Notes: generated by a model not told the origin, from the sequence alone. Shown: positions 38,850 to 58,449, counted from the stretch's first letter. The stretch is 64,000 bases of DNA from Corallococcus sp. bb12-1 (GCF_026626765.1 NZ_JAPNJZ010000012.1:13012-77011); one strand, 5' to 3'. Program-made: numbers and translations.

Positions 38850-41762
38850 ATGACCACCTCACGGCACCTCCCGGACACCGGGCCGTCCTCCCCGCCGAAC
38901 ACCGGCCGTCCCACGGGCGATGGCGGAGGCCTGTCGGAGCGGCCGCTTCATGCGACGCGGGTGGGGCGCTACGTGCTGCTCGCGCGGCTGGGGCGCGGTG
39001 GCATGGGCGAGGTGTTCGAGGCGTTCGATCCAGAGCTTCGGCGCACCGTCGCCATCAAGCTGCTGCACGAGCGCCGCCTCCCCGACGAGGAAGAGGACGC
39101 TCGCGCGCTGCGGCTGGTGCGCGAGGCGCAGGCCATGGCGCGCCTGTCGCATCCGAACGTGCTCACCGTGCACGACGTGGGGACGCACGACGGCCGGGTG
39201 TTCATCGCGATGGCCCGTGTGGAAGGCGGCACGTTGCGGCAGTGGTTGCGGGAAGGGCCGCACTCGCGACACCAGGTGCTGTCCGTGTGCCGGGCCATGG
39301 GCCGGGGGCTCGCGGCGGCGCACGCGGCGGGGCTGGTCCACCGCGACTTCAAGCCGGACAACGTGCTGCTCGGACGCGAGGGTGGTGTCTGGGTGACGGA
39401 CTTCGGCATCGCGTCGGATGCGAACGCGGAGGCCGGGCCCGGCGTGCCGGTGACGGCGCTGCTCGAAGCTCCCACCGATGCGCGGCTCACGGCGACTGGC
39501 GCGCTGGTGGGGACGCCCGCGTACATGGCCCCGGAGCAGTACGCGGGCCGGGGGCCGGACGCGCGCGCGGATCAGTTCAGCTATTGCGTGTCCGTCTACG
39601 AAGCCCTCACCGGCCAGCGCCCTTTCGAGGAGGGGACGCTGCGGCGCATGGCGGTGACGCTGCTGGATTCGCAGCGAGCGCCCCAGAGCGCCGTGACGCC
39701 CCGGGTGGAGCTGGAGCCGCCCGCGCATCCGTCCCTTCCGGGCTGGGTGCACCGCGTGCTCACGCAGGGGCTGGCGGTGGCGCCCGAGCAGCGCTTCGCG
39801 ACGATGGAGGCCCTGTTGGAGGCGCTGGAGCACGACCCGGAGGCCGGGCGGCGGAAGCTCGCGGGCCGGTCGCTGGCGGTGGCGGCCGGGCTGATGCTGG
39901 GGGTGGGGGTGGCGTGGGTGCGTCCCACGCCGTGCAGCGGGGCGCCCGCGCTGTTCGCCCAGGTGTGGGGATCCTCGCAGAAGGCGGCGGTGGCGGAGGC
40001 CTTCGAACGCAGCGGCGCGACGGACGCGGAGGGCGCCTTCGACCGGGTGTCGGGGGCCATGGATGCGTATGCGACGCAGTGGAGCCGGATGCACCGGCAG
40101 GCGTGCGAGGCCACGCGCGTGACGGGGGAACAGCCGGAGGCGCACCTGGCGCTGCGCATGGCGTGCCTGGACCGGCGCCTGCGGTCGGTGGACGCGCTGG
40201 GCACGGAGCTGGCGCACGCGGACGCGGAGCTGGTGCAGCGCAGCGCGGAGGCGGTGGACGCGCTCCGGGGCGTGTCCGGGTGCGCGAACGTGGAGGCGCT
40301 CTCCGCGGCGGTGCCCCCGCCGGAGGATGCGGCGGCCCGGGCCCGAGTGGAGGTGGTGCGCAAGGAGGTGACGCACGCGCAGGCGCTGCTCGACGCGGGC
40401 CGGTACGCGCAGGCGCTGCCCGTGGCCAGGGCGGCGGTCGACGCGGCGCGCGCCACGCACTACCGCCCGCTGGAGGCCGAAGCGCTGCACGTGCTGGGCT
40501 GGGCCCACCACCGCATGAGCCAGTCGCGTGAGGCGATGGCCACGTGGCACGACGCCATGGCCGCCGCCACGGCAGGCCGCCACGACGAGGTGGCGCTCCA
40601 GGTGGCCACGGAGCTGGTGCTCGGGTTGAGCGAGGCCCCCGAGTGGTTCCCGGAGGCGCACCTGTGGAGCGCGCAGGCGCACGCGTTGATTGAGCGGCTG
40701 GGTTCCGCGCCCGACCTGGAGGGGCGTCTGGCCAACCACGAGGGCATCCTCGCGCTGAGTGAGGATTCGCTCGACGCGGCTGCGGAGCACTACGCGCGGG
40801 CCCTGGCGCTGCGGGAGCGGACGCTGGGCACGCGTCACGTGGACACCGCGAAGGTCTACAACAACCTGGGCATGGTGCTGCTGCGGCAAGGAAAGCAGGC
40901 GGAGGCCACGGCCCTGTACCAGAAGGCGCTCGCCATCTACGAGGAGCGGCTGGGCCCCACGCACCCGCTGCTCGCGGGCACGCTCACCAACCTGGGCTTC
41001 GCGGAACAGGAGGCGGGACACCTGCCGCAGGCGCTCCAGTGGTTGCAGCGCGCGTACACGCTGCGCCAGCAGACGCTGGGGCCGCTCAATTCACAGACAC
41101 TGCTGTTGCTCCACGACCTGGCGCTCGTGCAGGAGTCGTTGGGCGCGCCGGACCGGGCGCTCGCGCTGCATCGGGAGGCACTGGAAGGCATGCGGCAGGG
41201 GTTCGGCGCGGAGAGCCGTGAGGCCATTGATTCGCTCAAGGCCCTGGCGGGCGCGGAGGAGCGCTTGGAGCGGGACGCGGATGCGCTCGCGCACTTCCAG
41301 GAAGGCCTGGCGCTCCAGCGCAAGGTGCTGCCGCCGGAGGAGTTCGCGGTGGACACGCTGGGGGAGGATGTGGGGCGGCTGCTCGTGGCGCAGGGCCGGC
41401 CGAAGGAGGCGGTGCCCCTGTTGCGCGAGGCGCTGGCGTCGAAGGCGCGTTCGCTGGGCGCGGAGCATGCTCGGACCGTCCACAGCCGCACGGCGCTGGG
41501 GCTGGCGTACTTCCAACTGGGGCAGGGCGATGCCGCGCGAGAACTGCTGGAGATGTCGGAGCGGGTGCTGGCCCCGCTGGGCTGGAATCCGACGGACGCG
41601 GCGATGACGCACTTCGCGCTCGCGCAGGCGCTCTGGAGTCACCCTGCGGAACAGGCACGGGCGCGGACGTTGGCGCAGAAGGCGGTCGACGGCTTCACGC
41701 AGGGCGGAGCCATGACCCGGCGCGAACTGGCGCAGGTGAAGCAGTGGCTCGCGAGCCGGTAG
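38850..41762 (+). CDS. Ser/Thr protein kinase (Hanks-type) with long C-terminal TPR-repeat region
   Basis: GRGGMGEVF, VAIKLL, HRDFKPDNVLL, DFGIA, PAYMAPE; C-terminal half with NNLG/TNLG…Y…AL TPR signatures. Confidence 0.8.
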   Translation: MTTSRHLPDTGPSSPPNTGRPTGDGGGLSERPLHATRVGRYVLLARLGRGGMGEVFEAFDPELRRTVAIKLLHERRLPDEEEDARALRLVREAQAMARLSHPNVLTVHDVGTHDGRVFIAMARVEGGTLRQWLREGPHSRHQVLSVCRAMGRGLAAAHAAGLVHRDFKPDNVLLGREGGVWVTDFGIASDANAEAGPGVPVTALLEAPTDARLTATGALVGTPAYMAPEQYAGRGPDARADQFSYCVSVYEALTGQRPFEEGTLRRMAVTLLDSQRAPQSAVTPRVELEPPAHPSLPGWVHRVLTQGLAVAPEQRFATMEALLEALEHDPEAGRRKLAGRSLAVAAGLMLGVGVAWVRPTPCSGAPALFAQVWGSSQKAAVAEAFERSGATDAEGAFDRVSGAMDAYATQWSRMHRQACEATRVTGEQPEAHLALRMACLDRRLRSVDALGTELAHADAELVQRSAEAVDALRGVSGCANVEALSAAVPPPEDAAARARVEVVRKEVTHAQALLDAGRYAQALPVARAAVDAARATHYRPLEAEALHVLGWAHHRMSQSREAMATWHDAMAAATAGRHDEVALQVATELVLGLSEAPEWFPEAHLWSAQAHALIERLGSAPDLEGRLANHEGILALSEDSLDAAAEHYARALALRERTLGTRHVDTAKVYNNLGMVLLRQGKQAEATALYQKALAIYEERLGPTHPLLAGTLTNLGFAEQEAGHLPQALQWLQRAYTLRQQTLGPLNSQTLLLLHDLALVQESLGAPDRALALHREALEGMRQGFGAESREAIDSLKALAGAEERLERDADALAHFQEGLALQRKVLPPEEFAVDTLGEDVGRLLVAQGRPKEAVPLLREALASKARSLGAEHARTVHSRTALGLAYFQLGQGDAARELLEMSERVLAPLGWNPTDAAMTHFALAQALWSHPAEQARARTLAQKAVDGFTQGGAMTRRELAQVKQWLASR

Positions 41763-41764
41763 GG

Positions 41765-41796
41765 GAGGCACCTCGGGCAGAGCCACGAGGTGCCTC
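41765..41796. terminator. 11-bp perfect hairpin in the 43-nt convergent gap between the kinase and methyltransferase genes
   Basis: gaggcacctcg-10 nt-cgaggtgcctc. Confidence 0.4.
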
Positions 41797-41805
41797 GGGA
41801 CGGCT

Positions 41806-42537
41806 TCACCCAGACGTCCTCAGTGGAGGCACTTCCGGGGAGTGCACCAGGAAGGCCTTGAACTGTAGCGAGGCGAAGAGCTGACGCGGCTGCTCCGTCA
41901 GTCCGGCCTCGCGCAGCAGTGCGAAGAACGCTTCATCGGAAGCGGGAATCTCAAGACTCGCGAGCTCCTTGCGCCGCCGCGCGAGCTTTTCGGGAGGGAC
42001 TCCAGACACGCGCAACTGCTCTTCTTCCACGGCCAGGAGGACGGGGTCGTTCCCAACGGACTCTCCGATGATGAAGGGCGCCCCGGGCTTGAGCCGACGC
42101 ACCACTTCACGCAGGAGTTCCAGGCGCGTTTGGGCTCCCGTCACGTGGTGGAGGACACCCACCATCTGGGCCCCGTCGAAAGGGGCGCTGGTGGGCAGGT
42201 CGTGAAGCGCCCCTTCGTGCAATCGCATCCGCTCGCCCATTCCCGTGCTGCTCAATCGCTCACGGGCCACGGCGAGCATGTGCGGTGAGGTGTCCGTCCC
42301 GGTGAAGCGCCACGTGGGCCTTCCATACCGGGAATAGGGCAGCAGCTCCTGCGCGGTTCCCACGCCCACGCAGAGGATCGAGGCGGAGTCGTTCCCTCTC
42401 AACACGGATGTCATCGTCGCCGCGATGAGTTCCTGCATGGCGTGGTATCCGGGCAGCGAGGTCGCCGTGCCCGCGTCGTAGCGGGCGGCGTGCTCCGCCC
42501 CGAAATGATGTTCGTGATGAGGCGCGTGTGAGTGCAT
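41806..42537 (-). CDS. Class I SAM-dependent methyltransferase
   Basis: Motif I ILCVGVGTAQE and post-I/II pattern (…LHEGALHDLP…VGVLHHV…LKPGAPFIIGE). Confidence 0.65.
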   Translation of the reverse strand: MHSHAPHHEHHFGAEHAARYDAGTATSLPGYHAMQELIAATMTSVLRGNDSASILCVGVGTAQELLPYSRYGRPTWRFTGTDTSPHMLAVARERLSSTGMGERMRLHEGALHDLPTSAPFDGAQMVGVLHHVTGAQTRLELLREVVRRLKPGAPFIIGESVGNDPVLLAVEEEQLRVSGVPPEKLARRRKELASLEIPASDEAFFALLREAGLTEQPRQLFASLQFKAFLVHSPEVPPLRTSG

Positions 42538-42690
42538 GGGAACTCCGTCGGGCCGGGGGAGGAGAACCGGCGCGTTGATGTGAAAGATACGCTTCGGATT
42601 CTTCGCCGCCAGAGCGGCCCTTCACGTCGAATCGGCGGCGCTTCCGGTGTCGTGGCGGGGGGCAGGTGACGCCCGCCGCGACATGGCTTT

Positions 42691-43461
42691 TCAGGCTGCT
42701 TCGCCCGCGCGCCGCCACCGCGCGGGTGTCTGTCCATGCACGCGGCGGAACTGGCGGATGAAATGCGTGACGTCCGCGTAGCCCACCTGCCGCGCGATGG
42801 TGTCCATGGGGGCGTCGGTGCCGCGAAGGCGGCGGCGGGCCTCGGCCATCCGCTGCGCGAGGATCCACTCGCCCACGGTGCGCCCCGTCTCACTGCGCAC
42901 CATGGTGGCCACGTGCGCTGGCGTGCGTGCCACGGCCCGAGCGACGTCGGACAACGACAGGGGCTGGAGCGCGCTCTTCTCCACGAAGGCGAGTGCCTGG
43001 CGCGAGAGGCTCGAGGCTTCGGTGCCCGAGCGCAGGGTGGAGGCGCTGGCACGCACGAGCTCCACGAGCACCAGTCGCAGGAGCGAGGCGAACGCCTCCT
43101 CCCGTCCCTCCTCGCTCCCCTCGCATTCCTCTTCGAGCGCCTGCATCCACTGTTCGAGGCGGCGGTGCTGCGCTGACGTGGGCCGCAGCACGGGGTGGCA
43201 CCCGCCGCGCACCTGCGAGAAGAGGCGCGTGGAGGATTCCGCCTGCTCGGGCCAGAAGGTCAGGGCCCAGCCCGTGGCCTGCTCGAAGTGCGCCTCCGCG
43301 TGTGAATCTCCTGGCGGAATGAGGTGCACGTCCCCTGGCCGTAGCTCCAGCGCGCCCGCATGCCGCACCCGCGAGCGGCCCCCGGTGAGCAGGACGATCA
43401 CTGCGTAGGGGTGCGCCCGCTTGCCGCCCGGACGCGCCCTGCCGTGGAGCCCCTGATGCAT
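42691..43461 (-). CDS. AraC-family transcriptional regulator with N-terminal cupin domain
   Basis: C-terminal double HTH (…LSLSDVARAVARTPAHVATMVRSETGRTVGEWILAQRMAEARRRL…VGYADVTHFIRQFRRVHGQTPARWRR); start placed at MHQGLHG. Confidence 0.7.
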   Translation of the reverse strand: MHQGLHGRARPGGKRAHPYAVIVLLTGGRSRVRHAGALELRPGDVHLIPPGDSHAEAHFEQATGWALTFWPEQAESSTRLFSQVRGGCHPVLRPTSAQHRRLEQWMQALEEECEGSEEGREEAFASLLRLVLVELVRASASTLRSGTEASSLSRQALAFVEKSALQPLSLSDVARAVARTPAHVATMVRSETGRTVGEWILAQRMAEARRRLRGTDAPMDTIARQVGYADVTHFIRQFRRVHGQTPARWRRAGEAA

Positions 43462-43544
43462 GTGACGCTCGAGGCGGGAGATGAAGAGGGGAGCGCGACC
43501 CTGCTGGAAGGCCACGAGGCCTGGAGGGCTGGGCGCATGGCTCG

Positions 43545-44474
43545 TCACGGGTGGGGAGGCTCCGCGTGGATGTTGAGGTCGTGCACCATCGTCCACCCCG
43601 TCAGCGCGCCCTGATACGCCGCCCCGATGGCGGTCTGCACGGGCGTCGTCACGTCCCCCGCCGCGAAGAGGCCCGGAATGGACGTCTCGCATTGGGGACT
43701 GACGCGAACATAACCCGCGTCATCGAGCGCGAGGCCGAGCGTGCGCACGAGCGCCGGCAGGTGCTGCTTCGGCTTGAGGAAGAGCGCGTCGAGCGGCACC
43801 GCCGTCCCGTCCATGCGCTGGGCTCCGCGCAGGACGCCATCCGTCTCCACGACGAGGCGCTCCAGCGGCCCCGTCTCCAGCCGCACGCCCGCGGCGGCCA
43901 GTCGCTCCCTCGCTTCGGGAGGGAGGGCCCATGCGCCGCGAGTCAAGGCGGTGACGTTCCGGGTCCAGCCGGTGAGCATGATGGCGAAATCGACGAGGGG
44001 GACGGAGTCGAGCAGCACGCCCCAGGCCTTTCCACGGATCTCCCAGCCGTGGCAGTGGGGGCACTGGAAGGCGCTGCGGCCCCAGGCTTCGCCCATGCCG
44101 GGCAGCGCGGGGGGCTCATCCACGGCGCCCAGGGCGAGCAGGACGCGCCGTGCACGCACCTGCGCGCCACCTTCGAGCATCACGTGGAAGCCGTCCTTCG
44201 GGCTCAGGGGCGTCACGGCCACCACCTGCTCCTCGCGGAAGGTGACGTCGTAGGGAGCGAGCTGCTCACGGCCGATGCGCCGGAACTCCTCGGGCGGTGT
44301 GCCGTCGCGGGTGACGAAGCCATGGATGTGCGTGGCCGCCGCGTTCCGCCGGGCCCCCGCGTCGCACAGCCACACCCGCTTGCACGCCCGCCCCAGCACG
44401 AGCGCCGCGCTCAAGCCCGCGGGCCCGCCGCCCACCACCACCACGTCCACCGTATCCATCTCTCGCTGTTCCAT
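43545..44474 (-). CDS. FAD/NAD(P)-dependent oxidoreductase (thioredoxin-reductase-like fold)
   Basis: VDVVVVGGGPAGLSAAL dinucleotide motif, …FAAGDVTT… C-terminal FAD motif. Confidence 0.7.
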   Translation of the reverse strand: MEQREMDTVDVVVVGGGPAGLSAALVLGRACKRVWLCDAGARRNAAATHIHGFVTRDGTPPEEFRRIGREQLAPYDVTFREEQVVAVTPLSPKDGFHVMLEGGAQVRARRVLLALGAVDEPPALPGMGEAWGRSAFQCPHCHGWEIRGKAWGVLLDSVPLVDFAIMLTGWTRNVTALTRGAWALPPEARERLAAAGVRLETGPLERLVVETDGVLRGAQRMDGTAVPLDALFLKPKQHLPALVRTLGLALDDAGYVRVSPQCETSIPGLFAAGDVTTPVQTAIGAAYQGALTGWTMVHDLNIHAEPPHP

Positions 44475-44640: not shown

Positions 44641-47600
44641 TCACCGGCGCTTGCGCGCAGGGGGCGGCGCTTCCCTTTCGACCCGGAATGCCGCGTCCAG
44701 GACGAAGGCGCGTACCTGGGCCTTTATCCGGGAGAGTTCCGTCGCTTGTTCCTCAAGGCACTGCCGTGCGCGGTCCTGGGTGATGACACCTCCCTCGGTG
44801 GGATGGGCCTGCGTCTCGTCCCAGTGAGCGCAGGCATACCAACCGACGAGGTAGATGCCATGCTGACAGGCGTTCTCCGCGAGGTAGCGCTCCACGAGTT
44901 GCTCCCGCATGGCTGTCCACAAGTCTGGATTCCAGCAGCCTTTGACCTCGATGATGACGCTGATGGGGGCTTCCCGCCCATCCGGACCTGCCGCCATCGC
45001 CTGGACGAGCAGGTCCGTGCGCTGCCCGGGGCGCAAGGGCTCCGTGGGACGGATCTCCACCTCGCGGTTCACGACGATGCGCCGGCCCGAGAGCTCTTGT
45101 GCGAGGTGGCGTTTGATCCAGTCCGAAAGGTGGTTCTCCTTCTTTGGTCTGAACCGGACCGGCTCATTCTTTTCCTTCCATTCGTTCCAGAGGAACTCGA
45201 GCGCGGGTGTCTCTCCATGGAGGTCCACCTGAAGGCGGCCAAGTGACTCCATGACGACATCGATGAGTTGGGCCGCGCTCTGGACGATGCGCGCCTGGGG
45301 CGAGCCCAGCAGCGCCAGCAGGTCGCGAGGGCCAGGAGGCCGCCAGTGCTCCGTGCGGAAGCTCTCCTGCGCCTGGATGAGCGCGATGCGCAGTCCTTTC
45401 CGGCCCGGGACTTCATGGTTCAGTCGCTCAAGGGCCCGACATGCGTCCCGGGAGGATTGCCTGAGCAAAAAACCCTCAATGTTGCCTTGGATGGAATGCA
45501 GGTCTCCGCCGGAGTTCATCACGGACAGAAACCGGCTCCCGCTCCGAGGGGCGCGTGCCCCTGCGTGCCGTTCGATCCAGAGATAGATGTCCGCGAGCTG
45601 TGCCGGAGAATAGGTGTTGAGGTGGATGGCGATCGGCAATCCCTGCTCCAGTGCGTCCATCACTGCCCGACCGAAAACCACATCCTGATGAAGGAGCGGC
45701 CAGACGCGCTCCCACGTATTTCTTGGAGCCCGCCAGAGAAGGGTCTGGGCGATCTGGATCCTGAGGTCCTGGGGCGTCCCCTGTTTCGCGTTGAGGCGTT
45801 GCTCCGCCTGGGGTTGGACCTCCGAAGGAACATGCTCTATCAGGATCCAGAGCAGGTGCAGCCAAAGTGTCTCCGTGAGGGCCGGACGGTTGAAGGCTTC
45901 CAGGGCCACGGAAACCAGCACGTCATTCCAACACAGTCTCAGACATTCGAGATAGGGCTCCGCTCCCGGACCGAACTCCTCGGCCGCCAGCTTGCGCCGG
46001 AAGCTGTTCTTCACGGTGTCGGGGGCGTGCCGCGTGGCGAGACTCACCACGTGCTTGCGAAGCTCGTGATTCGTGTCCGATTCCCAGTGGCGTGCGGTCA
46101 GGATCAAGGAGGCCCAGTTCCCCCAGACAGACGTGGGCAGGTCATCCAGTTGGACAGGTGCGACCCGGGCCAGCAGCATCAGGGCGGCGTACCCGGTCCA
46201 GGCCTCCCATGGAACCGGTCCTCCTTTTCGCAGCCAGGGTTCCTGCGGTGGCTTGATGAGTTTGATGTAGGTCGCGCCAGCCATCGCGATCCGCGACTGG
46301 AGCGCCCCAGGGACTGCGTTCCAATATTGATCTGAAGCGAAGAGATCGAACCTCGCCTTGGGCTCGGACAGGAGCTGGACGAGCTTGGGCCAACATCCTG
46401 GTTCGCCGCCCTCTATTCTCAGCAGCAGTTGTTCGCAGCGCTGGAGGCGCGGATCCTCCTTGGGAGGGTTCTCTGCTTTCCGGCCCAGGACCTCCGCGAA
46501 GGCGTGCGCGATCAACGGGTGCTGCTTCGTGGCCTCGTTGATTGCTGCTTCGAGGGTGGCGTCCTGCCCCGAAATGAATCCAGCCGCCAGCTCCGCCCAG
46601 GCGGATTGCTCCTCCGGCGACGAAGCCCCCAGGGCGCGCTGCAACAGCGGATGAAGGTCTCGCGGGAAGAAGAGGGGAGGGCGCACCTCCTTCAGCCGTC
46701 GCAAGTCCCCCGGAGCGGCTCGCGTCGTGGCAAGGCCATCAATGAGCAGCCAACGCTCCTGTTCTCCGCGAAGGTTCCATCCTTCAAGGGGGCCCATCTC
46801 CGCCCTGGCACCCGGAAGAACATCCTCCCTTCTTGTCACCTGGACCCATACGGCGGAGCAGAAAGCCTCGAAGACCTCCGCCACCTCCAGGTGCTGCCAT
46901 GCCTTCTGGAACAACGTCGTGCAGAGTTCCCTGTAGGCTAGGCTGTGACGTCCTGACTCGCCCTCCCTGGCAGGAGCCGCGATCTTCCGCAGGGCTTTCG
47001 GCAGGTCCGGAATCGGAAGGTGCTTTTCCCAGGCAGCCTGGAACCTCATTCCCAGATAGTCATTCCAGGGATGAGCCCGCGCCATGTCGATGATCTGCTC
47101 CGTGGAGACATGCCGGGGCCAGAGCAGGGTGAGCGCCTCCTCTCGCAACCGCCCTCTCTCTTCCCCATCCGCTTCTGACGACGACAGCGGCAGGAGCCGG
47201 GCCTGGGCCTCTTCATCCGCGAGTTCGCCCAGGACCTGGATGGCACGGAGACGTTCACTCGCACCGAACCTGGCATCCAACGCGATGTCCGCGCAGACGG
47301 GAGCCAGGGAGTGCTCCGCGCAGGCTCCGACGATGTCCAACGCGAAGGTGAGGACGCGAGCCTCGTCAGAGGGGGAGCGCAGATGGCGGCGGAGTTGTTC
47401 CCCGAGACCCGGATGCGCGAGCCTGTGGACATCCAGCCGGGCGTCCATCTCCCGTCCCAGAGACGTGCCCGTCGTGAGCGTGCCCAGAAGGGCATCCACG
47501 AGCCTCTCCCGGAGCAGGGGGCTGGCCGTGAGGGCGTCGCTCCGCAGCAGGACCCAGGGATCCGTCTCCAGGAGGAACTCGCGGAAGTCGTCGTCCTGGG

Positions 47601-48798
47601 ATGCCAGCCACGCGGCCACTTCCTGGAGCTGGGGCACGATGAGCTGGCCCGCATCCTCAGGATGCCGGAAGAGGCTTGCGAGCTGTTCACGCGGGAGCTT
47701 CCGCCGCATCAGGAAGAGGGCTGTCAGGAACTCCGCATAGGTGCGATGGGCCCAGACCGCGAGCCGTGGCCCGCCGGTGCCAAACAGCCCCGTGCTGAGT
47801 GCCTCCCGGAGGTTTTCTTCCGTGATGGGCACGCGCCGCCCGTCTGCTTCTTCCTCCTCTCCACCGGTCGCATCTCCCAGCCGGACTCCGTGGGACGCCT
47901 CGGCATCGAGGTCGGGCGGACCGAGCTGGATCGCGTCCCGGTTGGACAGCAGCGTCAGCGCCGCGAGACGCGAGGCAACGGCCAGCCGGGCGTCGGTTCC
48001 GAGGCGGCCTTGCTGCCCTGACTCCACACGGGATTCATCGTTCTCCTGCGCCAGGAGACCGCAGCCCTCCATGTAGAGGGTCCACCGGTCCGCGGGGAGC
48101 CGTCCCTGTTTGAACGCTCCCAGCAGGAAGCCGAGGGTCACCGGCCGGAGGGCGAGCGCGGTGGCATTCCGCTGAGCCACTTCCTGGAGGAACTTCGCTG
48201 CATCCACATGTCGGGCCTGGGCCAGTTGCTCGACATCCCGTCTGCGCAACGGCGCGAGTTCGACCGCCGCGAACGCTTCGTCCGTCCACAGCTCACGCAA
48301 CTGCTTTTCGAGGCTGCGCGGCCAGTGGGCGGGACGGCAGGCGATGAAGAGAAACAACCGCTCGCGGGGGAGTTCGCGAAGCTCGTGCAGGAGCACCTTG
48401 CTCAGTGTCTCGATGCGCAGGTGGCACTCATCGAAGCTGTCCAGGACGAGGTAGAGCGGAGCGTCCCCCTTCTTCCACTTCGCGATGACGTCCCCGTCGA
48501 AGAGCACCCGCGCGAGCCGCCCCTCATCTCCAAAGGCCGCCAGGTCATGCCACAGGAGGTGCGCGCCCAGGCGGTCGCAGTGACCCTGGATGGACTGGCG
48601 CTCCTGTCGCAGGGTGGTGGTCTTGCCCATGCCCGGCTCGCCGAGCAGTGCCACGCAATGCGTGGAGAGCAGCGCCTGCAAGGAGACGAGCTTCGAGGCC
48701 GCGTCCTGCCTGTCCAGCAGATACCCCTCATCGGAGAGGGCCAGCGCTTCGCCACGAGGGATCCAGAAGCGTTGCCACGGAATGGATTGGGTCGCCAT
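44641..48798 (-). CDS. STAND/NACHT-family NTPase (1385 aa) with central helical repeats and C-terminal PD-(D/E)xK nuclease-like domain; candidate antiphage defence protein
   Basis: Walker A GEPGMGKTT (aa 53-61), NACHT-type Walker B LYLVLDSFDEC (aa 116-125), FLFIACRP motif resembling NACHT TSRP/TTRP (aa 150-156). C-terminal …HLSDWIKRHL…IVVNREVEI…GQRTDLLVQ…ISVIIEVKGCW…QLVERYL = helix-E, beta, hD, ExK, Q restriction-endonuclease-fold signature (D1262, E1284, K1286, about nt 44941-45015). GC visibly lower than surroundings. Confidence 0.8.
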   Translation of the reverse strand: MATQSIPWQRFWIPRGEALALSDEGYLLDRQDAASKLVSLQALLSTHCVALLGEPGMGKTTTLRQERQSIQGHCDRLGAHLLWHDLAAFGDEGRLARVLFDGDVIAKWKKGDAPLYLVLDSFDECHLRIETLSKVLLHELRELPRERLFLFIACRPAHWPRSLEKQLRELWTDEAFAAVELAPLRRRDVEQLAQARHVDAAKFLQEVAQRNATALALRPVTLGFLLGAFKQGRLPADRWTLYMEGCGLLAQENDESRVESGQQGRLGTDARLAVASRLAALTLLSNRDAIQLGPPDLDAEASHGVRLGDATGGEEEEADGRRVPITEENLREALSTGLFGTGGPRLAVWAHRTYAEFLTALFLMRRKLPREQLASLFRHPEDAGQLIVPQLQEVAAWLASQDDDFREFLLETDPWVLLRSDALTASPLLRERLVDALLGTLTTGTSLGREMDARLDVHRLAHPGLGEQLRRHLRSPSDEARVLTFALDIVGACAEHSLAPVCADIALDARFGASERLRAIQVLGELADEEAQARLLPLSSSEADGEERGRLREEALTLLWPRHVSTEQIIDMARAHPWNDYLGMRFQAAWEKHLPIPDLPKALRKIAAPAREGESGRHSLAYRELCTTLFQKAWQHLEVAEVFEAFCSAVWVQVTRREDVLPGARAEMGPLEGWNLRGEQERWLLIDGLATTRAAPGDLRRLKEVRPPLFFPRDLHPLLQRALGASSPEEQSAWAELAAGFISGQDATLEAAINEATKQHPLIAHAFAEVLGRKAENPPKEDPRLQRCEQLLLRIEGGEPGCWPKLVQLLSEPKARFDLFASDQYWNAVPGALQSRIAMAGATYIKLIKPPQEPWLRKGGPVPWEAWTGYAALMLLARVAPVQLDDLPTSVWGNWASLILTARHWESDTNHELRKHVVSLATRHAPDTVKNSFRRKLAAEEFGPGAEPYLECLRLCWNDVLVSVALEAFNRPALTETLWLHLLWILIEHVPSEVQPQAEQRLNAKQGTPQDLRIQIAQTLLWRAPRNTWERVWPLLHQDVVFGRAVMDALEQGLPIAIHLNTYSPAQLADIYLWIERHAGARAPRSGSRFLSVMNSGGDLHSIQGNIEGFLLRQSSRDACRALERLNHEVPGRKGLRIALIQAQESFRTEHWRPPGPRDLLALLGSPQARIVQSAAQLIDVVMESLGRLQVDLHGETPALEFLWNEWKEKNEPVRFRPKKENHLSDWIKRHLAQELSGRRIVVNREVEIRPTEPLRPGQRTDLLVQAMAAGPDGREAPISVIIEVKGCWNPDLWTAMREQLVERYLAENACQHGIYLVGWYACAHWDETQAHPTEGGVITQDRARQCLEEQATELSRIKAQVRAFVLDAAFRVEREAPPPARKRR

Positions 48799-48893
48799 GC
48801 CCTGCCCGGACGGAGGAGCGCATCATGATAGCCTGACTGTCACTCCGTCTTGTCCTGCCTCCAGATATCGGCCCGGGTCCGTGGAGAAGTCAC

Positions 48894-50120
48894 GTGCGCC
48901 CCACCCCAGGTGAGGAGAAAAAGGGGCCCGATACGTTGTCGCCCTCCAGGGGCGCCACCGCGCCGGAGACCGTGGCGGTCTCCGATACCGACCGGCTCGT
49001 CCGCGGCCTCTGCGACAAGCGGATCGCGCTGCTTGGCGAGGACAGCCACCACGGAAGTGGCAGTACCCACGCCTTCAAGGCGGAATTGACCCGCAGGCTC
49101 GTGGAGGAATGCCAATACGATGCCTTCTTCATCGAGTCAGGCACCTATGACTTCCTCCACATCCAATCGGGGGTGGAGGAGGGCCAACCCGTCACCAACG
49201 GCGTCCTTGCGGCCGCGATTGGCGGCTTCTGGGCCAACGAGGAGACGGCGCCCCTGATTTCGTTCCTGTCCGAGCGGATCAATGCGGGCACCCTCGTCGC
49301 CGGTGGGATCGATGACCAGCTCAACCGGGGCACCTACGCATCCCGCCAGATGACGCGCGATCTCATGTCCTTCCTGGAGGGCCCGAGGCAGGCCGAGTGC
49401 ACGGAGAAGACCGAGCGGCACGTGTCATGGAAATACGACGACGCCTCCCTGCTCACGGTGGAGAGCCTGAAGTTCATCCTGGGCTGTTGGAAGGAGGTGG
49501 AGTCGGTGCTCTCCAGGCCCGGAGCGGCCGCGACAGCGCGGGCCGGGCGCCAACTGCAGATGGTCCGCAACCTGGAGCGGAACTTCATCCGGCAGGTCTA
49601 CCGGATGTCCCTGACTCCGGAGCAGAACAAAGGGGGTTGGGACTTGAAGGATTTCAACACGCGTGACCATTCCATGTTCATGAATCTGGAGTGGCTTCTG
49701 GCCCAGTCCCCCAAGCCTAGAAAAGCCATTGTCTGGCTTGCCACCCTTCATGCCGCCAAGGACCTCAAGGGCCTGGGGACGAACCATCGAAACAGGGTGC
49801 AGTTCGGAGCCCATGTTCAGGAAAAATTCGGCTCGCAATCATTCGCGCTTGGTTTTTCCGCGCTCTCCGGGCGCTATGCCCTCGGCCCCTCGGATCGCAC
49901 GCATACCCTCGCACCCGCACGGGCCGACTCCCTGGAGGCCTGGGCGTTTTCAAATCACACCTCGGACACCCGGTATCTGGATGGAAGCCAGCTTCGTGAC
50001 CTCGGGGCCAGGGTGGCACGTCCCCTGGATTACTCGTGGATGACGGCCTCCTGGGCAACGGTCCTGGATGGACTGCTGATCTTCCGGGAAGAGGCCCTCC
50101 CGCACCGGGTACCCTGGTGA
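48894..50120 (+). CDS. Erythromycin-esterase (Ere/ChaN-like, PF05139-type) family hydrolase
   Basis: …IALLGEDSHHGSGSTHAFKAELTRRLVEECQYDAFFIESG… and …KAIVWLATLHAAKD… resemble the two His-containing Ere motifs; GTG start; divergent from the NACHT gene. Confidence 0.5.
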   Translation: MRPTPGEEKKGPDTLSPSRGATAPETVAVSDTDRLVRGLCDKRIALLGEDSHHGSGSTHAFKAELTRRLVEECQYDAFFIESGTYDFLHIQSGVEEGQPVTNGVLAAAIGGFWANEETAPLISFLSERINAGTLVAGGIDDQLNRGTYASRQMTRDLMSFLEGPRQAECTEKTERHVSWKYDDASLLTVESLKFILGCWKEVESVLSRPGAAATARAGRQLQMVRNLERNFIRQVYRMSLTPEQNKGGWDLKDFNTRDHSMFMNLEWLLAQSPKPRKAIVWLATLHAAKDLKGLGTNHRNRVQFGAHVQEKFGSQSFALGFSALSGRYALGPSDRTHTLAPARADSLEAWAFSNHTSDTRYLDGSQLRDLGARVARPLDYSWMTASWATVLDGLLIFREEALPHRVPW

Positions 50121-50218
50121 GGTTCACGGCAGGGGACGCATCCACTCCGGACACCCATCCCCGCTCACTCCGCCCGCTTGCGACGCAGTGAGAGGTCCGA
50201 TTCGCCCGTGCGCGCATA

Positions 50219-50247
50219 TTGACATTTTATGCGCTGGCTGTTACAAT
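50219..50247 (+). promoter_or_regulatory. Consensus sigma70 promoter TTGACA-N17-TACAAT predicting a leaderless tetR-family transcript
   Basis: Exact hexamers with a 17-nt spacer; the ATG of the TetR ORF lies 7 nt after the -10 box. Confidence 0.55.
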
Positions 50248-50254
50248 GTTCCAC

Positions 50255-50812
50255 ATGCCAGCCGCCATCACAGATGAGGAGGCCGCCGAACGCCGCTTGA
50301 AGGTCCTGCATGCCGCACGGTGGTGCTTCCTGAACTTCGGCTTCTCGAAGACGTCATTCGAAGACATCGCGAAGCGCGCGAGTATCTCGCGAACGCTGCT
50401 CTACCGAATCTTCAAGGACAAGGAAGACATCTTCACGGCCGTCTTCGCGTACTGGCTGGTGGCGCGGCACCCGGAAGCGCAGCAGGTCGCCAACGGTCCG
50501 GGCAGCCCGTACGAGCGCTTGCTGAACGTGTGTCGGGTGATGGTGCTTGAACCCTGGTCCGACATGGTCGCGGCCCCGATGGGGACCGAGTTTTTCGACG
50601 TCTGCGCGCGGCTCGACCCGGGGATTGATGCGCACCATCGCAAAGTCGCACTCCAGTGCTTGGCGGCAATCCTGGGAGATGAAGAGAGAGCTGAAGTCTT
50701 CCTTCTCTCTCTCGAGGGCCTCCTTGCGGATGAACCCGCGATGGCAGTGCTCGAAAGACGGCTTCGAATTCTCGCGGGCCAGTTCGTTCGGCCAATGAAA
50801 TCTGATCAATAG
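50255..50812 (+). CDS. TetR/AcrR-family transcriptional regulator
   Basis: N-terminal HTH (…RLKVLHAARWCFLNFGFSKTSFEDIAKRASISRTLLYRIFKDKEDIF…). Confidence 0.75.
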   Translation: MPAAITDEEAAERRLKVLHAARWCFLNFGFSKTSFEDIAKRASISRTLLYRIFKDKEDIFTAVFAYWLVARHPEAQQVANGPGSPYERLLNVCRVMVLEPWSDMVAAPMGTEFFDVCARLDPGIDAHHRKVALQCLAAILGDEERAEVFLLSLEGLLADEPAMAVLERRLRILAGQFVRPMKSDQ

Positions 50813-50891
50813 CGTTGGTGGCGCGCGCTGACGGTCTCGTCGGCGCACCACGACGTTCAAGCCACGCAGCGCCATCCCCACAAAGGTTCTC

Positions 50892-51545
50892 ATGAAGATC
50901 ATCCTCTTCGGCTCATCCGGCATGGTCGGTGCAGGGACCCTGCGCGAAGCCCTCAATTCCCCCCAGGTCGAGTCCGTGCTGAGCATCGGGCGCCAATCGT
51001 GCGGCGTCACTCATCCCAAGCTGCGTGAACTCCTCTTGCCAGATTTGTTCGACTTCGCGGCCGTGGAGAACCAGCTCGATGGCTACGACGCTTGCCTCTG
51101 GGCCGTGGGCATCAGTTCGGTCGGGCTTGATGAGGCGGCCTACGCCAGGATGACCGAAGAGCTGACACTCGTCTGGGCCCGTGCCCTCTTGCGTCTCAAT
51201 CCCGAGTTCTCCTTCTGCTATTGCTCGGCTGGCGGTGCTGGCGGGAGGTCGATGTGGGCACGCGTGCGGCAGCGTGTCGAGGGCGCGCTCCAGTCAATGC
51301 CTTTCCGGTATGCCGGGGCGGTCAGGCCCACCTTCATACGGCCGGGCCCCGGCATTCGAAGCCGCACGCGGGCCTATCGGGTTGGAGCTGTCCTGCTGAC
51401 GCCGCTCTTTCCGTTCTTCGTCCGTGTCTTCCCAGCTCTGTTCACCACCTCCGAGACACTTGGCCAGGCGATGCTCCGCGTCGTCGAAGGACGCGCCGAT
51501 CGGTTCATCCTCGAGTCCGCGGACATCAATCGGGTCGGAGCATGA
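50892..51545 (+). CDS. NAD(P)H-binding (NmrA/atypical-SDR-like) oxidoreductase
   Basis: MKIILFGSSGMVGAGTL Rossmann start; 217 aa. Confidence 0.6.
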   Translation: MKIILFGSSGMVGAGTLREALNSPQVESVLSIGRQSCGVTHPKLRELLLPDLFDFAAVENQLDGYDACLWAVGISSVGLDEAAYARMTEELTLVWARALLRLNPEFSFCYCSAGGAGGRSMWARVRQRVEGALQSMPFRYAGAVRPTFIRPGPGIRSRTRAYRVGAVLLTPLFPFFVRVFPALFTTSETLGQAMLRVVEGRADRFILESADINRVGA

Positions 51546-52231
51546 GCCTGGTGACGCCGCGCTCCAGGCGCCACGCGAAGCTCGTGGCGGTCGTCCTGGT
51601 GCTCGTCACGCTCGCGAGCGCCTACCACTTCGGCGTCTTCGCGCAGGTCGCCGACCCGAAGCTCCTCGTCCAGACGCTGGTCGCGATGGGGCCGTGGGGA
51701 TATCTCGCGTTCGTCGTCGCCTATACCGTCTTGCAGCCGTTCGGCGTGCCCGGAACGGTCTTCGTCGTCGCAGCGCCGCTGATCTGGCCGTGGCAAACGG
51801 CGTTCGTGCTCTCGATGATCGGGACGATGTCCGCCAGCATCGTCGGCTTCTCGTTCGCGCGCTTTGTCGCAAAGGACTGGGTCTCGGCGCGCATCCCGGC
51901 GCGGCTGCGCAAGTACGACGACGCGCTCGAAAGGAACGCATTCCAGACTGTCGTCCTCCTGCGCCTTGTCCTCTGGATGCCGCAGATGCTGCACTATTTC
52001 TTCGGTGTCTCGAAGGTAGGGTTCTGGACCCACTTCTGGGGTTCGCTCCTTGGCTACATTCCGCCGCTCCTCCTCGTAAGTTACCTCGGCGCGGAGATGT
52101 TCGATGCGTCGGGGAGGATGCAGCCCGGTGCGTGGCCCGTTCTCGCCGGCTTGCTCATCGCTTCGCTGCTCATCGCCGTGCTCGCCCGAGTCTACGAGCG
52201 ATGTCTTCGTGCCCGCTGGAGTTCTCCCTGA
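51542..52231 (+). CDS. DedA/TVP38/SNARE-associated family membrane protein
   Basis: ATGA overlap with the previous gene; characteristic …LQPFGVPGTVFVVAAPLIWP… re-entrant region and 4-5 TM segments. Confidence 0.7.
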   Translation: MSLVTPRSRRHAKLVAVVLVLVTLASAYHFGVFAQVADPKLLVQTLVAMGPWGYLAFVVAYTVLQPFGVPGTVFVVAAPLIWPWQTAFVLSMIGTMSASIVGFSFARFVAKDWVSARIPARLRKYDDALERNAFQTVVLLRLVLWMPQMLHYFFGVSKVGFWTHFWGSLLGYIPPLLLVSYLGAEMFDASGRMQPGAWPVLAGLLIASLLIAVLARVYERCLRARWSSP

Positions 52232-52521
52232 AGCGCGACGCGGCGGAAAAAGGCATTCATCTCTCCCTCAATCCGTTGGACCAGGGGTTTGTGCTGAATA
52301 TTGTCCATGCGCTCGCGAAGCCCTTCTCAAGCACGCCAGAGCAAGGCGCCGACTCCCTCATCTGGCTCGCCACTTCGCCGGAGGCGGCCTCTCTGATGGG
52401 CGAGTACGTCTCAAAACGACGGCCGGTGAAGCCGCGGAAGCAGGCTCTCGACCCGAAGCTCGCGGCCGACCTCTGGACGCTGAGCGAGAAGCTCTGGTGC
52501 ATGGAAGGGTTCGCCAGGTAA
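52196..52521 (+). pseudogene. Orphan C-terminal fragment of a classical SDR (retinol-dehydrogenase/WWOX-like), probable gene remnant
   Basis: …PFSSTPEQGADSLIWLATSPEAASLMGEYV…LAADLWTLSEKL… matches SDR C-termini (…TPEQGAATTVY…A…LW..SE.L), but no TGxxxGxG/YxxxK part exists upstream (the upstream frame is non-SDR and overlaps DedA). Confidence 0.4.
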
Positions 52522-52615: not shown

Positions 52616-53767
52616 TCAACTCAGCCACCAGGCCGCCACCGCCGCCGCGAGCAGTCCGCCTGTCACGCCAAGAGCCATCCACCGGCGCGACGGCTGTTCC
52701 GGCGGCCTTGCCGTGAAGACCCGGGGGCCCACGAACTGGGTTGGTGACTCCGAGCGGGGCGAAGGCGCCGCCCGCTCCACGGGCCTCGTGGGCAGGGCCT
52801 CCGTGCGCATCACCTCCGTGGCAGGTGGAGGCACGGGCACGGGTGGGGCCTGCCGTGGTTTGGGCGGCATGGGGACGGGCGGCTCCATCAGCCGGGAAGG
52901 GAAGAGCGGGGGCTCGCCCAACGTGGCCAGCTCCGCGCGCAGCGCCTTGGCCACTTCGGTCGCCTCCGTGGGCCTCGCCCGGCGGTCCTTCGCGAGCAGC
53001 GTCTCCACCAGCGACACCAGCGACGCAGGAATCCCGGGACGCAGCGGTGTGAGCGGCGGGGGCGCGTCGTACAGCACCGACTCCATCACCGCCCGGCCCC
53101 GCTGGATGGGGAACGGCCTGCGTCCCGCCAGCAATTCGTAGAGACAGACACCCAGCGAGTACAGGTCCGCCCGCGCATCCAGCGGCTCGTCGCGGATCTG
53201 CTCCGGGGACATGTACGCCAGCTTCCCCATCACCACGCCCGATGTCGTCTGCGTGCCTTCGGACGTCTTCACGATGCCGAAGTCCGCGATCTTCACCGTG
53301 CCCGTGAAGGACAACAGCAGGTTGTCCGGCGACACGTCGCGGTGGATGAGCTCCATCCACTTGCCCGACTCCGGATTGACGAAGCGGTGCACGTACGCAA
53401 GCCCATCACACGCCTGCGCGATGGCATCCAGCACTGGCGCCAAGGGCAACAGCTCCGGCCGACTCGCCGCGTGGATGTGCGCCAGGCTGGAGCCCGCCAC
53501 GTACTCCATGGACAGGTAGAGCTGGTCGTCGATGACGCCCGTCTCCAACACCCGCACCACGTTGAGGTGATGCAGGCCCGCGGCCACCTCCGCCTCCCGC
53601 AACAGACGGCGGCGGAAGCGGATGTCGGCCGCGTGCTCGGAGTGGATGCGTTTGAGGACGACCGGGGCGTCCCAGTCCTCGCGCTCCGCGAGCGAGACGC
53701 GCCCCATGCCGCCTTCGCCAATCTCCCGCAGGATGCGGTACGGCCCCAGTCGCTGGACGTCATTCAT
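52616..53767 (-). CDS. Membrane-anchored Ser/Thr protein kinase (C-terminal TM) with atypical catalytic loop HRDVSPDN
   Basis: GEGGMGRV, VVLKRI, HRDVSPDNLLL, DFGIV, YMSPE; Pro-rich linker; C-terminal WMALGVTGGLLAAAVAAWWL TM. Confidence 0.75.
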   Translation of the reverse strand: MNDVQRLGPYRILREIGEGGMGRVSLAEREDWDAPVVLKRIHSEHAADIRFRRRLLREAEVAAGLHHLNVVRVLETGVIDDQLYLSMEYVAGSSLAHIHAASRPELLPLAPVLDAIAQACDGLAYVHRFVNPESGKWMELIHRDVSPDNLLLSFTGTVKIADFGIVKTSEGTQTTSGVVMGKLAYMSPEQIRDEPLDARADLYSLGVCLYELLAGRRPFPIQRGRAVMESVLYDAPPPLTPLRPGIPASLVSLVETLLAKDRRARPTEATEVAKALRAELATLGEPPLFPSRLMEPPVPMPPKPRQAPPVPVPPPATEVMRTEALPTRPVERAAPSPRSESPTQFVGPRVFTARPPEQPSRRWMALGVTGGLLAAAVAAWWLS

Positions 53768-53830
53768 TCCGGGGCAAGCCTACCGCCACTGACGCCAGGG
53801 CCGCTGGGGGGAAGACAGCTGTTCCTCGCG

Positions 53831-54505
53831 TCAGCCGTTCGACGCCACCCGGGAGCTGTCCTGGGGCGGGGCCGCGTCTTCCTCGGCGCCTTCGCGCGCC
53901 TGGGCGCCCTTCGAGTGCGTCGAGCCCGACTTCCGGCTGCTCTCACCCGTGGAGATCCGACCGCCGCGCGCGCCCTCGGCGGGCACCTCCGTCGGAGGAT
54001 CGGCCTGCATTGTCTTCATCAGCTCCGCCACGGCCCGGGCGATCTTGGAACCCCACTCCGTGCCGTTCGGCTTCGGCGCTGCTTCCTCCGCCTTCCCATC
54101 GGGTGGAACGAAGCTGGTGCACACCGCGCCGGAGTGTCCGCCGCCGCTTCCTCTCACGCTGGAGCCCGAAGCCAGAGGATCCAACCCGGCGTTCCGGGAC
54201 TGCGCGCCTTCATCAAAGGCATCCTTCGGCTTTCCGGCGGAGGTGTCCAGCTTCGAGGGGTCGAAGGCGTTGTCGGAATCCCATACGCTCTGGGTCCTGC
54301 GGGAGTTCCCGCTGCCGCCGACGAGGATGCTCTGGCCGGAGGCATAGTGGGGCCTCTCCGCCGCGTCGCTCGGCGGAGGCGTCCCCCGGCCGAAGAGGTC
54401 GGGCAGCTTCGTGAGCGGGCCTTCGGGGGCCCTGGACTCCGCCGGGGGCGCCGGCTGCGGCTGCACGGACGGCACGGCACTCGACAGCGGGCGGAGGATC
54501 TTCAC
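53831..54505 (-). CDS. Hypothetical low-complexity (Ser/Gly/Pro-rich) protein upstream of the kinase
   Basis: ORF with acceptable codon usage; no motif; could be non-coding. Confidence 0.3.
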   Translation of the reverse strand: MKILRPLSSAVPSVQPQPAPPAESRAPEGPLTKLPDLFGRGTPPPSDAAERPHYASGQSILVGGSGNSRRTQSVWDSDNAFDPSKLDTSAGKPKDAFDEGAQSRNAGLDPLASGSSVRGSGGGHSGAVCTSFVPPDGKAEEAAPKPNGTEWGSKIARAVAELMKTMQADPPTEVPAEGARGGRISTGESSRKSGSTHSKGAQAREGAEEDAAPPQDSSRVASNG

Positions 54506-54670
54506 GGAGCACCTCGGACGGCGGATTTCCCTCCCCCATCATCGTTCGGGGAGTGTCCGGAGTTTCCCCTGTCTCCCAGGAAATCAAACTTCCGCGTCCT
54601 ACCTGCCACGGCGGCCTGCGTCACTGCCTGCCGAGGAGGGAGACGCGCGGATCCGGATCAGGGTTTCCCC

Positions 54671-56194: not shown

Positions 56195-56314
56195 GTCCGC
56201 TCCTTGCTTCCAGGAAACCGACGGACGTTGGGGGGCCTCGGGGTGAAGAGACACCCGCCCTGAAAGGCATGTGGGCGCGGGATGTCCGACGCTGCCGTGC
56301 CTGGAGCGGTGCGG

Positions 56315-57412: not shown

Positions 57413-57420
57413 CATGCGCG

Positions 57421-58413: not shown

Positions 58414-58449
58414 GGCGGCATGTATGCACAGCCACGGCCACGCGTAAAG

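Follow-up and report, generated by a model that had tools for sequence, protein, structure and literature searches.

We analysed a 64,000-nucleotide stretch of DNA from Corallococcus sp. bb12-1 (NZ_JAPNJZ010000012.1:13012-77011; hereafter the window, with positions counted from its first letter), focusing on one minus-strand open reading frame (ORF) at 44641-48798, here called the NACHT gene. The results indicate that its product, the query protein, is probably a single-polypeptide, NLR-like antiviral STAND protein from a large sister clade of Erebus (EruA) and Hypnos (HyoA), whose antiphage activity has been validated by experiment. The evidence for this reading is that the domains can be identified, that the catalytic and NTPase motifs are intact and invariant, that both ends of the protein are homologous to EruA and HyoA, that the gene is patchily distributed and mobile, and that it has no conserved partner gene. 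An earlier interpretation made from the bare DNA (the sequence-only reading) had proposed an undescribed single-gene defence system. A single-gene defence system is upheld as the best reading of the gene's role; judged by its sequence, the protein is a distant member of the Erebus/Hypnos (Avs10-like) kind and not an undescribed system.

Domain architecture and conserved motifs

The gene was confirmed at the length and position given by the sequence-only reading, on the minus strand and with an ATG start, and its product is identical to WP_267574650.1 / MCY1042766.1, annotated in RefSeq as 'NACHT domain-containing protein' of Corallococcus sp. bb12-1. Its features, partly drawn from AlphaFold2 (AF2) models, are as follows.

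44641-48798, minus strand: whole ORF of the NACHT gene; ATG start, uninterrupted, 1385 aa plus stop codon (44641-44643)
48658-48798, minus strand: N-terminal extension, residues 1-47; short and conserved (W8, R10, W12, R15 and G25 at least 87% conserved)
48199-48657, minus strand: P-loop nucleotide-binding domain, residues 48-200 (Pfam NACHT 48-197, AF2 model)
48616-48642, minus strand: Walker A GEPGMGKTT, residues 53-61; G58 and K59 invariant
48424-48456, minus strand: Walker B LYLVLDSFDEC, residues 115-125; D120, D123 and E124 invariant
48331-48345, minus strand: sensor-1 block IACRP, residues 152-156; R155 invariant, family consensus IACRT
47629-48198, minus strand: helical domain and winged-helix domain, residues 201-390 (AF2 model, alignment)
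47719-47754, minus strand: winged-helix motif WAHRTYAEFLTA, residues 349-360; H351 invariant
45382-47628, minus strand: all-alpha HEAT/TPR-like solenoid, residues 391-1139 (AF2 model); presumed ligand sensor
44644-45381, minus strand: C-terminal domain, residues 1140-1385, a helical lead-in and a PD-(D/E)xK core; presumed effector
44899-45138, minus strand: catalytic core, residues 1221-1300 (alignment and AF2 model)

To measure conservation, 119 full-length homologues were aligned with MAFFT; most share 30-35% overall identity with the query. The results showed that G58, K59, D120, D123, E124, R155, H351, E1221, R1245, E1246, D1262, E1284, K1286, Q1300, Y1305, Y1316 and W1320 were invariant in all of them (119/119). 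Since such invariance persists at 30-35% identity, the motifs are under selection and did not arise by chance. GEPGMGKTT, LYLVLDSFDEC, IACRP, RTDLLVQ, VIIEVKG and QLVERY all lie where the sequence-only reading had placed them.

At the N-terminal end, Pfam PF05729 NACHT matched residues 48-197 at 29.5 bits, above its gathering threshold of 26.7. The motif set of a NACHT/STAND protein was complete and invariant, comprising Walker A, Walker B with its acidic residues, the sensor-1 arginine and the winged-helix histidine. The NLR winged-helix signature is a motif of the 'FxHxxxQEFLAA' type with a conserved histidine; WAHRTYAEFLTA resembles it and starts, in the AF2 model, in the helix that follows the hairpin 339-349. 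The model of residues 1-1190 (60-sequence alignment; predicted local distance difference test score (pLDDT) 86.1, predicted template-modelling score (pTM) 0.78) placed five parallel strands in the P-loop alpha/beta domain (48-52, 80-85, 115-120, 148-154 and 176-181). A Foldseek search of this model against the Protein Data Bank (PDB) returned the STAND proteins Avs3 (8dgc, E 4.7e-6), NLRC4 (8.5e-6), NLRP3 and NLRP7 (to 3e-4), together with the HEAT/ARM solenoid proteins CAND1, importin-beta and SF3B1. Template-modelling (TM) scores were low, as expected for long flexible multidomain chains, so these matches support the domain classes and not one specific relative. On its motifs, profile match and modelled fold, the product is thus identified as a NACHT-clade STAND NTPase, as had been claimed. 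Only 47 residues precede the first P-loop strand and no separate effector domain lies there, in agreement with the claim that the protein has essentially no N-terminal domain.

The C-terminal domain was modelled separately (residues 1140-1385, 38 sequences; pLDDT 86.0, pTM 0.80). Its core showed the alpha-beta-beta-beta-alpha-beta order of the PD-(D/E)xK fold, in which E1221 opens helix 1, N1244-R1245-E1246 lie on strand 1, D1262 precedes strand 2, E1284-V-K1286 lie on strand 3 and Q1300 falls in the next helix. The motifs concerned are RTDLLVQ at 1260 (D1262), VIIEVKG at 1281 (E1284 and K1286) and QLVERY at 1300. The catalytic residues expected of PD-(D/E)xK enzymes (D at strand 2, ExK on strand 3 and an acidic residue in helix 1) were all present; N1244 was conserved in 97% of the homologues, and E1221, R1245, E1246, D1262, E1284, K1286 and Q1300 in every one. 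From the modelled fold and this intact, invariant catalytic signature, the domain is assigned to the PD-(D/E)xK nuclease fold, as the sequence-only reading had suggested, and is predicted to be a nuclease.

This catalytic signature bears directly on the possibility that the protein is a non-immune STAND signalling protein or regulator, whose C-terminal PD-(D/E)xK domain serves only for DNA binding or oligomerisation. STAND clades with and without defence roles are interleaved (PMC13581612), and PD-(D/E)xK folds are sometimes catalytically dead, which leaves some room for such a role. However, the full E...D...ExK...Q set is invariant across the homologues despite their low overall identity, a Pfam scan of the protein found no helix-turn-helix (HTH) or other output domain, and the gene is not syntenic among relatives and occurs in about 0.24% of species genomes. 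We therefore regard a non-immune role as very improbable.

Between the two conserved ends, the AF2 model showed an uninterrupted all-alpha solenoid from about residue 390, bearing out the long helical-repeat region that had been described after the NACHT module. Identity to distant family members was 45% in the nucleotide-binding domain, 40% in the helical and winged-helix domains and 49% in the nuclease core, compared to 20-29% in the solenoid, which is the least conserved part of the protein. A variable middle with conserved ends is what would be expected of a sensor in an arms race, under diversifying pressure.

Relationship to EruA, HyoA and the Avs10 group

The query was compared with two reference profiles of NCBIfam release 20, EruA (NF058535, cut-off 1000 bits) and HyoA (NF058534, cut-off 1200 bits). 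The results revealed matches to 'NACHT domain-containing antiphage protein EruA' (7e-76, 256.4 bits) and to the antiphage NACHT protein 'HyoA' (2.6e-53, 181.1 bits), both below the equivalog cut-offs (256 vs 1000 bits and 181 vs 1200 bits, respectively), which places the query outside either equivalog. Seven other members of the clade (from an Enterobacteriaceae metagenome-assembled genome (MAG), Anaerolineae, Melittangium, Paenibacillus, Azospirillum and two metagenome sources) behaved alike, with 254-322 bits on EruA and 162-190 bits on HyoA. Since the query and all seven score far below the cut-offs, they form a coherent sister clade and do not belong to either named equivalog.

The homology nevertheless extends over most of the chain. 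Query residues 116-635 aligned to EruA profile positions 71-583, and the architecture was collinear, the C-terminal domain included. When the query was scanned in three pieces, the first 700 residues matched both models and the last 245 residues also matched both (EruA 1118-1316 of 1318, 5.5e-23; HyoA 1286-1413 of 1430, 4.3e-10), whereas residues 701-1150 scanned alone against NCBIfam matched neither EruA nor HyoA. Full-length homology to HyoA was confirmed by the family member P0034, which aligned collinearly in one stretch (182-1399 vs 200-1413). Because the C-terminal ends of EruA and HyoA match the C-terminal 245 residues of the query, these known proteins share its NACHT-first, nuclease-last order. 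The collinear matches to two antiphage families, C-terminal domain included, do away with the description of the system as 'undescribed'. Nor is the domain order the novelty it had been taken for: EruA and HyoA share it, and Kibby et al. (2023) described effectors that also lie C-terminally, after the repeats, and suggested that the effector is brought back to its usual place by the solenoid.

Lee et al. (Nature 2026) grouped Erebus, Hypnos and bNACHT64 as Avs10, in a survey of 589 clades and 684 sensor clusters (PMC13581612). Membership of Avs10 is defined by the sensor structural cluster (Foldseek, 80% coverage, TM at least 0.40), its trigger is the HK97-fold major capsid protein, and the representative tested and named there was that of Enterobacter hormaechei (EhAvs10); effector mutation or deletion abolished cell death in all tested families, Avs10 included (PMC13581612). 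The query shares with this group a single gene of about 1300-1430 aa, an N-terminal NACHT module without an N-terminal effector, and a long helical sensor followed by a homologous C-terminal domain. It differs in bit scores that are a quarter or less of the equivalog cut-offs, in a distal sensor (701-1150) without detectable similarity to either model, and in the hosts of its clade, which are myxobacteria, cyanobacteria, Acidobacteriota, Chloroflexota, Planctomycetota, Bacillota and archaea as against Enterobacter hormaechei.

These likenesses and differences also bear on whether the query could be a true Avs10 orthologue, with the same sensor fold and the same HK97-fold major capsid protein as trigger, diverged in sequence alone. 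The equal length, the collinear architecture and a homology to EruA/HyoA that runs from the NACHT module through the first half of the solenoid and resumes in the nuclease would fit, and the family is evidently broad, because Erebus and Hypnos, two separate NCBIfam equivalogs, were already joined in it by Lee et al. (PMC13581612). On the other hand, sensor residues 701-1150, the most variable region, match neither model alone, and all eight family members scanned score only about 250-322 bits on EruA. Strict orthology is possible on this evidence, although we consider it unlikely.

A major capsid protein as the trigger of the query clade is likewise doubtful, given that neither the EruA nor the HyoA model shows detectable similarity to the distal sensor. 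Tentatively, the clade may instead be a distinct Avs-type family, whose distal sensor would recognise a different conserved phage protein, or the capsid proteins of phage groups outside the E. coli screens, and whose BamHI-like C-terminal nuclease would be a lineage separate from Cap4 and Mrr. If so, 1,943 clusters (50% identity, E up to 1e-30) would have been missed by PADLOC 2023 and by the EruA and HyoA cut-offs.

Distribution and mobility of the clade

A profile of the C-terminal domain was searched against 1.84 billion proteins clustered at 50% identity, yielding 3,892 cluster representatives with an E-value threshold of 0.001 and 1,943 with one of 1e-30. The domain stood at the extreme C-terminus in 150 of the 150 matches listed, and complete proteins were about 1,400 aa long. 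Relatives were found in 446 of 185,579 species genomes (one genome per species), spanning at least eight bacterial phyla and several archaea. The carriers comprised many Cyanobacteria, a few Myxococcota, and Acidobacteriota, Chloroflexota, Planctomycetota, Bacillota, Bacteroidota and Nitrospirota, and archaeal carriers included Methanosarcinales and Candidatus Argoarchaeum. Plasmid-borne copies occurred in Bradyrhizobium, Dolichospermum (conjugative), Nostoc PCC 7120 and Bacillus cereus, some of the plasmids being conjugative or mobilizable. No match was obtained by tblastn against 50,697 phage records or by blastn of the Enterobacteriaceae-MAG homologue against E. coli genomes. This patchy and mobile distribution is typical of defence genes.

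The nearest myxobacterial homologues, in Corallococcus sp. M7 (74% identity) and Melittangium boletus (46%), sit in neighbourhoods unrelated to each other and to the window. Here too the sequence-only reading is supported: the gene does not occupy one fixed locus among relatives, and the GC content of its codons is lowered (see below). The sequence-only reading had also named the case that would undo it, a housekeeping STAND regulator at a fixed locus with native GC content; the patchy distribution, the unrelated neighbourhoods and the lowered GC show that this is not what the gene is.

Two plasmid-borne relatives departed from the common architecture. WP_010994165.1 (L091:3998-7903), from plasmid pCC7120epsilon of Nostoc sp. 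PCC 7120, is 1302 aa long, aligns to query residues 3-1232 only and ends in a weak zinc-ribbon match (under the Pfam threshold) in place of the nuclease core, so that it may represent an effector swap or loss; its gene has two further NACHT NTPase genes and a tyrosine recombinase in its flanks. WP_217580381.1 (L090:3187-6621), from plasmid pRJH1 of Rhodococcus pyridinivorans, is a distant relative of 1145 aa in which the helical and winged-helix domains and the solenoid are retained, as is the nuclease core with its D and ExK. The annotated protein begins at the equivalent of residue ~203, without the P-loop domain, and its gene adjoins a tyrosine recombinase.

Neighbourhoods across the family and points against an antiviral role

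An all-against-all BLAST of 147 neighbours from 27 loci revealed no conserved partner gene, and the three myxobacterial loci (the window, Corallococcus sp. M7 and Melittangium boletus) had no neighbours in common. The gene is therefore solitary, as claimed. One family recurred, a PIN-domain (VapC-like) ORF of 134 aa. In 4 of the 27 loci, all of them cyanobacterial, it lies on the same strand as the NACHT homologue, about 260 nt downstream; rather than a partner gene, it is probably a toxin-antitoxin remnant left from a shared island.

L018:10953-11354, L033:10963-11364, L038:10963-11364 and L056:10952-11353: PIN-domain ORF

A PADLOC scan of the same 147 neighbours gave strong matches to PD-T4-6, PDC-S56, HmaB/HmaC, CARF-HEPN, PDC-S03, MADS components, AriA, DruE, PtuA and BrxA. 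In the region L087:805-9713, a three-gene module lies directly upstream of a homologue from a biogas metagenome, consisting of a gene for an SNF2-type helicase with NOV_C, a DUF1156 methyltransferase-like gene and a DUF499 gene. Further upstream come a MazE antitoxin gene and a DUF4365 fragment, and the whole has the look of a defence island. Another homologue is followed directly by an HNH gene and, about 9 kb beyond that, by a phage integrase.

Several results weigh against an antiviral role of the Erebus/Hypnos kind. The scores fall far short of the NCBIfam equivalog cut-offs, so that the function is borrowed from distant relatives. We take EruA to be Erebus and HyoA to be Hypnos from the names alone; the Erebus and Hypnos NACHT systems were reportedly named by van den Berg et al. 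in 2024, and a literature search for 'EruA' and 'HyoA' found these words in unrelated uses alone. The PADLOC scan that the sequence-only reading had suggested was run with PADLOC-DB 2.0.0 (2023) and matched the query to 0 families at E up to 1. In the Pfam scan of the C-terminal domains, no family was found for the query and 1 of 38 homologues touched PDDEXK_3 (E 0.0069), while searches of PDB sequences, whether made with the whole protein or with the profile of the C-terminal domain, returned noise and no relative; because curated-family profiles did not recognise the domain, its PD-(D/E)xK assignment rests on fold and motifs. The defence-type neighbours across the 27 loci are no more than suggestive, the comparison having no matched control and the PADLOC models including generic domains. 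Finally, the neighbours of the NACHT gene in the window are non-defence genes.

The last of these points would also suit another form of conflict or self-directed cell death, such as restriction of plasmids or other mobile genetic elements, kin discrimination or developmental death in multicellular bacteria. Cyanobacteria and Myxococcota are heavily represented among the best 80 loci, with myxobacteria and filamentous cyanobacteria as prominent carriers, and many copies are themselves plasmid-borne. However, the family is present in unicellular bacteria and archaea too, defence-type neighbours recur, and the nearest characterised relatives are antiphage (PMC13581612). Taken together, such a role appears improbable.

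Proposed mechanism and comparison with characterised systems

For the antiviral reading, a mechanism can be proposed by analogy with Avs1-4, Avs7, bNACHT25 and Avs10, from which autoinhibition, ligand-driven oligomerisation, the DNA substrate and abortive infection are all borrowed. At rest, the protein would be an autoinhibited monomer with ADP in the NACHT module. The solenoid of about 750 residues would wrap around a conserved phage protein (in the Avs10 case, the HK97-fold major capsid protein), and ligand binding would free the NACHT module for nucleotide exchange and oligomerisation. Oligomerisation would in turn assemble the C-terminal PD-(D/E)xK domains into an active nuclease, which would degrade DNA and abort the infection. 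Overall, this would be the standard Avs/NLR scheme with the effector at the opposite end.

Avs1-4/AVAST and Avs7 (Gao et al. 2020, 2022; Lee et al. 2026) likewise carry, on one polypeptide, a STAND NTPase together with a sensor of alpha-helical repeats and a PD-(D/E)xK-type nuclease effector (Cap4 or Mrr), and in them oligomerisation induced by the ligand activates the nuclease; the Avs3 structure 8dgc was itself among the Foldseek matches of the query model (E 4.7e-6). bNACHT25 (Kibby et al. 2023; Conte et al. 2025) shares the bacterial NACHT module and a restriction-endonuclease-fold DNase, and H351 of the query corresponds to the position whose mutation hyperactivates both bNACHT25 and NLRC4. 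In bNACHT25, however, the restriction endonuclease is Mrr-like and belongs to an N-terminal-effector scheme (Kibby et al.), with sensing via DnaJ, whereas the predicted nuclease domain of the query is C-terminal and of no Pfam-detectable family. The eukaryotic NLRs NLRC4, NLRP3 and NLRP7 share the NACHT fold and motifs (Foldseek 8.5e-6 to 3e-4) and a repeat sensor C-terminal to NACHT; they differ in having leucine-rich-repeat sensors and N-terminal adaptors (CARD, PYD), compared to the alpha-solenoid and fused predicted enzymatic effector of the query.

These comparisons extend the known picture of STAND-based immunity and do not change it. The annotation 'NACHT domain-containing protein' gives way to a specific prediction: a pattern-recognition receptor resembling Erebus and Hypnos, in which the effector is C-terminal and has a restriction-endonuclease fold, and for which K59, D1262, E1284 and K1286 are defined as residues for mutation. 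The studied representatives from Enterobacteriaceae and Pseudomonas adjoin a much larger environmental clade that is unlabelled at the PADLOC-DB 2023 and NCBIfam cut-offs and that includes archaeal and conjugative-plasmid copies. Myxophage or cyanophage proteins would be natural trigger candidates for the query clade.

Base composition of the NACHT gene and its flanks

The GC content of the NACHT gene was 65.4%, compared to 72.1% in the left flank (38850-44474), 69.5% at 52616-58449 and 69.0% in the whole window, a whole-gene deficit of 4-7 points; the lowest value over any 500 nt was 62.6%. At third codon positions (GC3), the gene stood at 0.78 against 0.88-0.93 for most long ORFs of the window, a gap of 10-15 points. 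The sequence-only reading had put the GC drop at 10-15 points; its direction was right and its size overstated for the gene as a whole, a drop of that size being seen at third codon positions. The low-GC3 block also runs rightward past the gene to about 52.5 kb (63.5% GC, GC3 0.75-0.79), and the methyltransferase and AraC genes to the left have somewhat depressed GC3 too.

48894-52521: low-GC3 block right of the NACHT gene, with an esterase gene (48894-50120), a TetR regulator gene (50219-50812) and a gene for a VTT/DedA membrane protein (51221-52231)

The VTT/DedA ORF overlaps an ORF at 50892-51545 that has no Pfam match. The boundaries of the claimed island were not found: the window contained no detectable tRNA genes, no integrase or transposase was found among the main neighbouring ORFs, and around the low-GC block there were only short imperfect repeats, consistent with chance. 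We also compared NACHT homologues with their flanks in 58 homologous loci, 56 of which had measurable flanks, from genomes of 38% to 69% GC. The homologue had lower GC than its flanks in 49 of the 56 loci (difference up to 16 points), so the depression belongs to the family at large and is not peculiar to the window.

Immediate surroundings of the gene

The NACHT gene is transcribed divergently, as had been stated, from an Erythro_esteras-family (erythromycin esterase, Ere-like) gene on the plus strand (48894-50120, Pfam 9e-20).

48799-48893, no strand: 95-bp divergent intergenic region between the NACHT gene and the Ere-like esterase gene

A promoter scan of this region found no sigma-70 consensus, although such a scan is expected to be uninformative in a myxobacterium. 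Shadow ORFs on the strand opposite the NACHT gene (e.g. 45268-46335) were rejected as high-GC artefacts, because the minus-strand ORF has hundreds of full-length homologues.

The neighbours in the window encode a Ser/Thr kinase with TPR repeats, a methyltransferase, an AraC regulator, an oxidoreductase, the esterase, TetR, DedA and a second kinase. Orthologues of the oxidoreductase gene directly downstream of the NACHT gene (43545-44474), whose GC3 is native (0.89), were searched in order to locate the empty site in other Corallococcus genomes. The gene had no close orthologue in named Corallococcus species, the best matches being 76-78% identical in metagenomes and 57% in Hyalangium, so the whole neighbourhood of the NACHT gene looks accessory. 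Ser/Thr protein kinase genes with native GC3 flank the region on both sides (38850-41762 and 52616-53767), the left one encoding 970 aa with a large TPR array. Myxobacterial genomes typically show this, and nothing was seen that would link the kinases to the NACHT gene.

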